A stretch of DNA of 64,000 nt from Escherichia coli (GTDB taxonomy: Bacteria; Pseudomonadota; Gammaproteobacteria; Enterobacterales; Enterobacteriaceae), in assembly GCF_030013205.1 (NCBI RefSeq), contig NZ_CP122648.1; one strand, 5' to 3'. Position 1 is the first letter of the stretch. Each line of letters opens with the position of its first letter. Positions 59,992 to 60,068 of the stretch are shown one piece after another. Under the pieces are notes generated by a model. It saw only the letters and a program-made list of their open reading frames with translations. It searched no databases and had not been told where the DNA came from. A program made the position numbers and the translations under genes.

Positions 59992-60068
59992 CGCGGGGTG
60001 GAGCAGCCTGGTAGCTCGTCGGGCTCATAACCCGAAGGTCGTCGGTTCAAATCCGGCCCCCGCAACCA
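59992..60068 (+). tRNA. metY: initiator tRNA-fMet
   Basis: 77-nt cgcggggtggagcagcctggtagctcgtcgggctcataacccgaaggtcgtcggttcaaatccggcccccgcaacca; anticodon CAT; G at the variable-loop position (fMet1 type). Confidence 0.93.

Follow-up and report, generated by a model that had tools for sequence, protein, structure and literature searches.

According to the genome comparisons presented here, G46 is the ancestral and species-wide allele of the initiator tRNA gene metY in Escherichia coli, and A46, the allele that gives tRNA-fMet2, differs from it by one base, is derived and is restricted to the K-12 lineage. The gene under study lies in a stretch of DNA of 64,000 nucleotides, all of which was analysed (hereafter the window) and which is identical at 64,000 of 64,000 bases to positions 511997-575996 of the ETEC4079 record NZ_CP122643.1. 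The window metY is almost certainly a normal E. coli gene, i.e. an initiator tRNA at the head of an operon, with the ancestral G46 and a product whose sequence equals that of the metZ, metW and metV products. The difference between K-12 and B strains at this gene has been known since 1992, when it was reportedly published by Mandal and RajBhandary, and the allele found in the window is an ordinary one.

Results

Position 46 of the window metY gene

ARAGORN placed a tRNA-Met (CAT) gene at exactly 59992-60068 on the + strand, one of two tRNA genes in the window, and the same sequence (CGCGGGGTGGAGCAGCCTGGTAGCTCGTCGGGCTCATAACCCGAAGGTCGTCGGTTCAAATCCGGCCCCCGCAACCA) scored 61.4 bits against the Rfam tRNA model RF00005, for which the gathering score is 29. 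Both ARAGORN and Rfam give a canonical cloverleaf with a CAU anticodon. Positions 1 and 72 are C and A, which form no Watson-Crick pair and are marked by Rfam as a non-standard pair, and the anticodon stem (UCGGG / CCCGA) contains three consecutive G:C pairs (29-41, 30-40 and 31-39). The C1xA72 mismatch is a formylation determinant of bacterial initiator tRNA and, together with the three anticodon-stem G:C pairs, it gives the window gene the hallmarks of an initiator tRNA. A single initiator tRNA gene is found between the divergent argG and the rimP leader followed by rimP, nusA and infB, which identifies the metY locus (Table 1). The preliminary description of this stretch as the metY initiator tRNA gene is therefore confirmed by ARAGORN, by Rfam and by the argG/rimP context.

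The base that discriminates between the two initiator tRNA species lies in the variable loop, within the stretch that reads ...ACCCGAAGGTCGTCGG...; window position 60038 is the 47th nucleotide of the gene when counted linearly and corresponds to canonical position 46, the offset being due to an extra residue, 17a, in the D loop. On alignment this base is G, as had been read from the letters alone, and not A. Comparison with metY of MG1655 (NC_000913.3, 3318213-3318289) gave one mismatch in 77 nt, namely an A at position 46 in K-12, whereas K-12 metZ, metW and metV all have G46 and match the window gene exactly, as does metY of E. coli B REL606. What had been stated of the other genes, an A in K-12 metY and a G in metZWV and in metY of E. 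coli B, was thus correct throughout.

Initiator tRNA genes were found at four matching places in the ETEC4079 genome. The metZ, metW and metV copies of this strain lie between amiC and mltA (1,055,494-1,055,789) and have the same sequence as the window metY. The window gene therefore has the G, rather than A, of tRNA-fMet1, and its product is identical in sequence to the metZ, metW and metV products, both for K-12 and for the strain's own copies. Since the window is ETEC4079 sequence and the other three genes equal metY, the strain's initiator tRNA would all be of the fMet1 sequence, and the earlier suggestion to this effect is upheld; the data support a strain that encodes the fMet1 sequence from all four initiator tRNA genes. 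In mature fMet1, position 46 is described as m7G (PMC3017606).

Locus organisation and the 3' trailer

The genes rimP, nusA and infB form an operon led by metY. Two promoters, P-1 and P0, have been described 5' of metY (PMC6511841); the site at 59870-59899 is probably P-1, an assignment made from its position, and position likewise points to the site at 59947-59976 as P0. Terminators t1 and t2, described in the same paper, are matched by the rimP-leader hairpins at 60183-60206 and 60231-60243. Upstream of metY the window differs from K-12 by a SNP at 59853 and by another at 59885, in the promoter spacer, where the window has A and K-12 has G. Elsewhere in the window, the annotation of the identical ETEC4079 record places an IS200C-family tnpA between mdh and degS (1621-2079, + strand).

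Table 1. Features of the metY locus in window coordinates.
Feature	Position	Strand	Basis
argG, divergent upstream neighbour marking the metY locus	58301..59644	-	RefSeq annotation
Candidate sigma-70 promoter, TTGACA-18 nt-TATAAT, 12/12 consensus	59870..59899	+	Consensus scan
Second promoter-like site, TTTGCA-18 nt-TAGAAT, 9/12 consensus, just 5' of the tRNA	59947..59976	+	Consensus scan
metY, initiator tRNA-fMet gene with CAT anticodon and an encoded CCA end	59992..60068	+	ARAGORN, Rfam RF00005, RefSeq tRNA-Met QDW55_RS02735
G46, variable loop; G (m7G in mature tRNA) = tRNA-fMet1, A = K-12 tRNA-fMet2	60038	+	Alignments with K-12, B REL606 and other strains
Junction of 7-bp deletion (CCCTTAG missing), four bases past the CCA end	60072..60073	+	Alignments
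Long hairpin 3' of metY, 10 + 10 bp upper stem, RNase III processing element	60078..60128	+	RNA fold
rimP leader, Rfam RF01770	60150..60250	+	Rfam, 102 bits (gathering score 47)
Two terminator-like hairpins in the rimP leader	60183-60206, 60231-60243	+	Terminator scan
rimP	60268..60720	+	RefSeq annotation of identical record, converted to window coordinates
nusA	60748-62235	+	RefSeq annotation of identical record, window coordinates
infB, cut by window end	from 62260	+	RefSeq annotation of identical record, window coordinates

The trailer of the window gene carries a 7-bp deletion that ETEC4079 shares with none of the other complete E. coli genomes in the set of 5,426, all of which align with a 7-base gap, and with a 451-nt query around metY ETEC4079 was the sole genome of the 5,426 to match at 99% identity or above (100%). 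RNase III processing at metY is attributed to Regnier and Grunberg-Manago (1989), as cited in PMC6511841 and PMC5371410, and the site has been mapped at K-12 position 3318176 (PMC5371410), equivalent to about 60098 in the window. In the predicted fold of the intact version the hairpin is lengthened by a basal helix of 8 bp (CACUUUCC paired with GGAAAGUG), into which the final two CCA-end bases are drawn, and by four more pairs. The loss of CCCTTAG takes out the 5' strand of this predicted helix, and in the predicted fold of the deleted version the helix and the four pairs are gone while the upper stem is unchanged.

It might be argued that the peculiarity of this locus that counts is the deletion and not position 46, with a weaker base of the RNase III hairpin altering the release of metY or the stability of the rimP-nusA-infB mRNA. 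The uniqueness of the 7-bp loss among the 5,426 genomes, the predicted loss of the basal helix and four pairs, and the documented RNase III cleavage in the downstream hairpin (PMC6511841, PMC5371410) speak for such a role, but the upper stem of ~20 bp is intact together with the mapped cleavage site, other RNases can substitute when RNase III is absent (PMC6511841), 3' exonucleases are established to trim any trailer to CCA, and the 7-bp loss may be an assembly artefact. This reading is considered unlikely, and it is slightly less likely again that the deletion would measurably change metY precursor processing or the stability of the rimP-nusA-infB message; if it did, the effect would be altered expression of the initiator tRNA or of the ribosome-biogenesis operon in ETEC4079. 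The deletion may instead be neutral, or an artefact of assembly.

Two further genes of ETEC4079 bear on how far the deletion can be trusted: ghxQ carries a frameshift flag and xdhA one for an internal stop, and these are either real pseudogenes or assembly errors. The region 920000-969999 of NZ_CP122643.1, which includes prfB, xdhA and glyU, also holds an integrase-bearing island beside a tRNA-Gly gene, downstream of actS.

Distribution and ancestry of the two alleles

The occurrence of G46 and A46 was surveyed in a collection of 5,426 complete E. coli genomes. Because the identity bands of the 451-nt query and of a 219-nt query were too coarse to separate one SNP, a 95-nt query and a 41-nt probe were chosen. 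The former comprises 18 nt of leader plus the tRNA, so that a single mismatch puts identity below 99%, and the latter is centred on A46 and has no 28-mer seed on the G46 gene, so that it gives no megablast match there. The G46 version of the 95-nt query was found exactly in 4,821 of 5,425 genomes and the K-12 A46 version in 365; the 41-nt probe also matched exactly 365 genomes, with one chromosomal copy in each. No A46 copy is present in the other 5,060 of 5,425 (~93%). Neither exact 95-nt version fits 239 genomes, none of which has an A46 copy by the 41-nt probe, and two genomes sampled from this group each have G46 and an unrelated SNP.

Other variation was seen in the same collection. In the natural isolate E. 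coli DLI.6n (NZ_CP103974.1, locus 319-395) the D loop of metY shows a C-to-T change, GCAGCTTGG for GCAGCCTGG, together with G46, and in strain Z0117EC0098 a C-to-T change is found in the metY 5' leader. Initiator tRNA matches range from 1 to 8 per genome with a median of 4, four of these matches sit on plasmids, and one of the 5,426 genomes has zero matches to the metY region or to initiator tRNA.

The 365 genomes with A46 were sampled evenly to give 60, all of which look like K-12 strains or K-12 derivatives by the criteria of strain name, source and genome size (4.5-4.8 Mb). They include MG1655, DH10B, MC4100, C600, HB101, XL1-Blue, EMG2 and NBRC 3301, as well as O16:H48 mouse-gut isolates and transconjugants. 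Practically every genome from outside the K-12 lineage appears to lack A46.

Species representatives of the Enterobacterales and Vibrio were scanned for the 3' half of the tRNA with R at position 46, followed 105-135 nt on by the rimP-leader hairpin. Exact conservation of both elements was required, and among the matches listed G46 was found in 120 of 120 outgroup loci and A in none; the genera among these matches include Citrobacter, Enterobacter, Klebsiella, Salmonella, Serratia, Erwinia, Pantoea, Hafnia, Edwardsiella, Vibrio and others. Within E. coli, ATCC 8739 and many natural isolates, with humans, chickens, pigs and river water as sources, carry the upstream haplotype of K-12 together with G46 at 100% match, and the upstream haplotype of the window was not found together with A46 in the same genome among the complete E. 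coli genomes.

These observations also bear on the possibility that G46 is secondary in the window lineage and in E. coli B, i.e. a derived 'B-type' allele created when gene conversion overwrote an originally A46 metY with metZWV sequence. Multi-copy tRNA genes are generally known to undergo gene conversion, and metY, metZ, metW and metV are indeed identical in ETEC4079, but such an origin would leave an ancestral A46 at odds with the G at metY in every one of the 120 other-species loci among the matches listed, with the ~93% of complete E. coli genomes that have no A46 copy, and with the linkage of A46 to one upstream haplotype that is itself also seen with G46 in many wild isolates. An origin of G46 by gene conversion from metZWV is thus extremely improbable and is rejected on the outgroup loci listed and the haplotype data. 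The least probable alternative of all, that the ETEC4079 record is wrong at 60038 through faulty sequencing or assembly and A46 is the true base, could appeal to the at least two genes outside the window that are flagged as frameshifted or with an internal stop (ghxQ, xdhA) and that could be assembly errors, but it is rejected because G is the overwhelming majority allele, and furthermore the ETEC4079 upstream haplotype is never seen with A46 and chance re-creation of a common allele by an error is very unlikely.

The simplest history for the two alleles would be that G was replaced by A once, in the K-12 lineage. The preliminary description had referred to the window gene as having the 'B-type allele'. 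As a label this misleads, given the number of E. coli genomes that lack an A46 copy (5,060 of 5,425) and the G at metY in all 120 other species sampled; since G46 is ancestral, 'B-type allele' is a misnomer.

Discussion

The closest counterparts of the window gene are found in E. coli B and MRE600, in which metY is the same 77-nt tRNA gene with G46 at the same locus 5' of rimP-nusA-infB; as in ETEC4079, B strains have four identical initiator tRNA genes per genome (PMC3017606, PMC6511841). A passage in PMC3017606 states the K-12 versus B difference at metY and credits it to Mandal and RajBhandary (1992, J Bacteriol 174:7827), and the same statement on metY is made for MRE600 in PMC6511841. ETEC4079 is nevertheless of a different background from E. 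coli B, being a porcine ETEC isolate from pig faeces in Belgium, and REL606 differs from the window in the trailer, where it has a C-to-T change (AGTTC) and retains the 7 bp absent from the window. The K-12 gene shares with the window its locus, promoters, trailer hairpin, rimP leader and operon, along with 76 of 77 tRNA bases, but has A46, other bases at 59853 and 59885, and an intact CCCTTAG in the trailer. The mature tRNA sequence of metZ, metW and metV equals that of the window metY in K-12, ETEC4079 and strain CAVP888, whereas their setting differs, in that they are three tandem copies between mltA and amiC with their own promoter, unlinked to rimP-nusA-infB.

On the basis of established knowledge of this operon and of initiator tRNA maturation, transcription of the metY operon would begin at both upstream promoters, P-1 and P0. 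The tRNA would be freed from the polycistronic transcript by an RNase III cut in the downstream hairpin, RNase P would make its 5' end, and exonucleases would then shorten the trailer to the encoded CCA. TrmB would be expected to convert G46 to m7G in the mature tRNA, MetRS would charge it and Fmt would formylate it by way of the C1xA72 mismatch, after which IF2 and IF3 would set it in the ribosomal P site by way of the three anticodon-stem G:C pairs.

For ETEC4079 itself the finding has little consequence, as its four identical genes of the fMet1 type are the usual complement of initiator tRNA genes in E. coli. The textbook pair of fMet1 and fMet2 is, rather, a peculiarity of K-12 laboratory strains and not a property of E. 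coli. Where absence of the fMet2 band or a read with A46 serves as a marker, A46 is best treated as a marker of the K-12 lineage.
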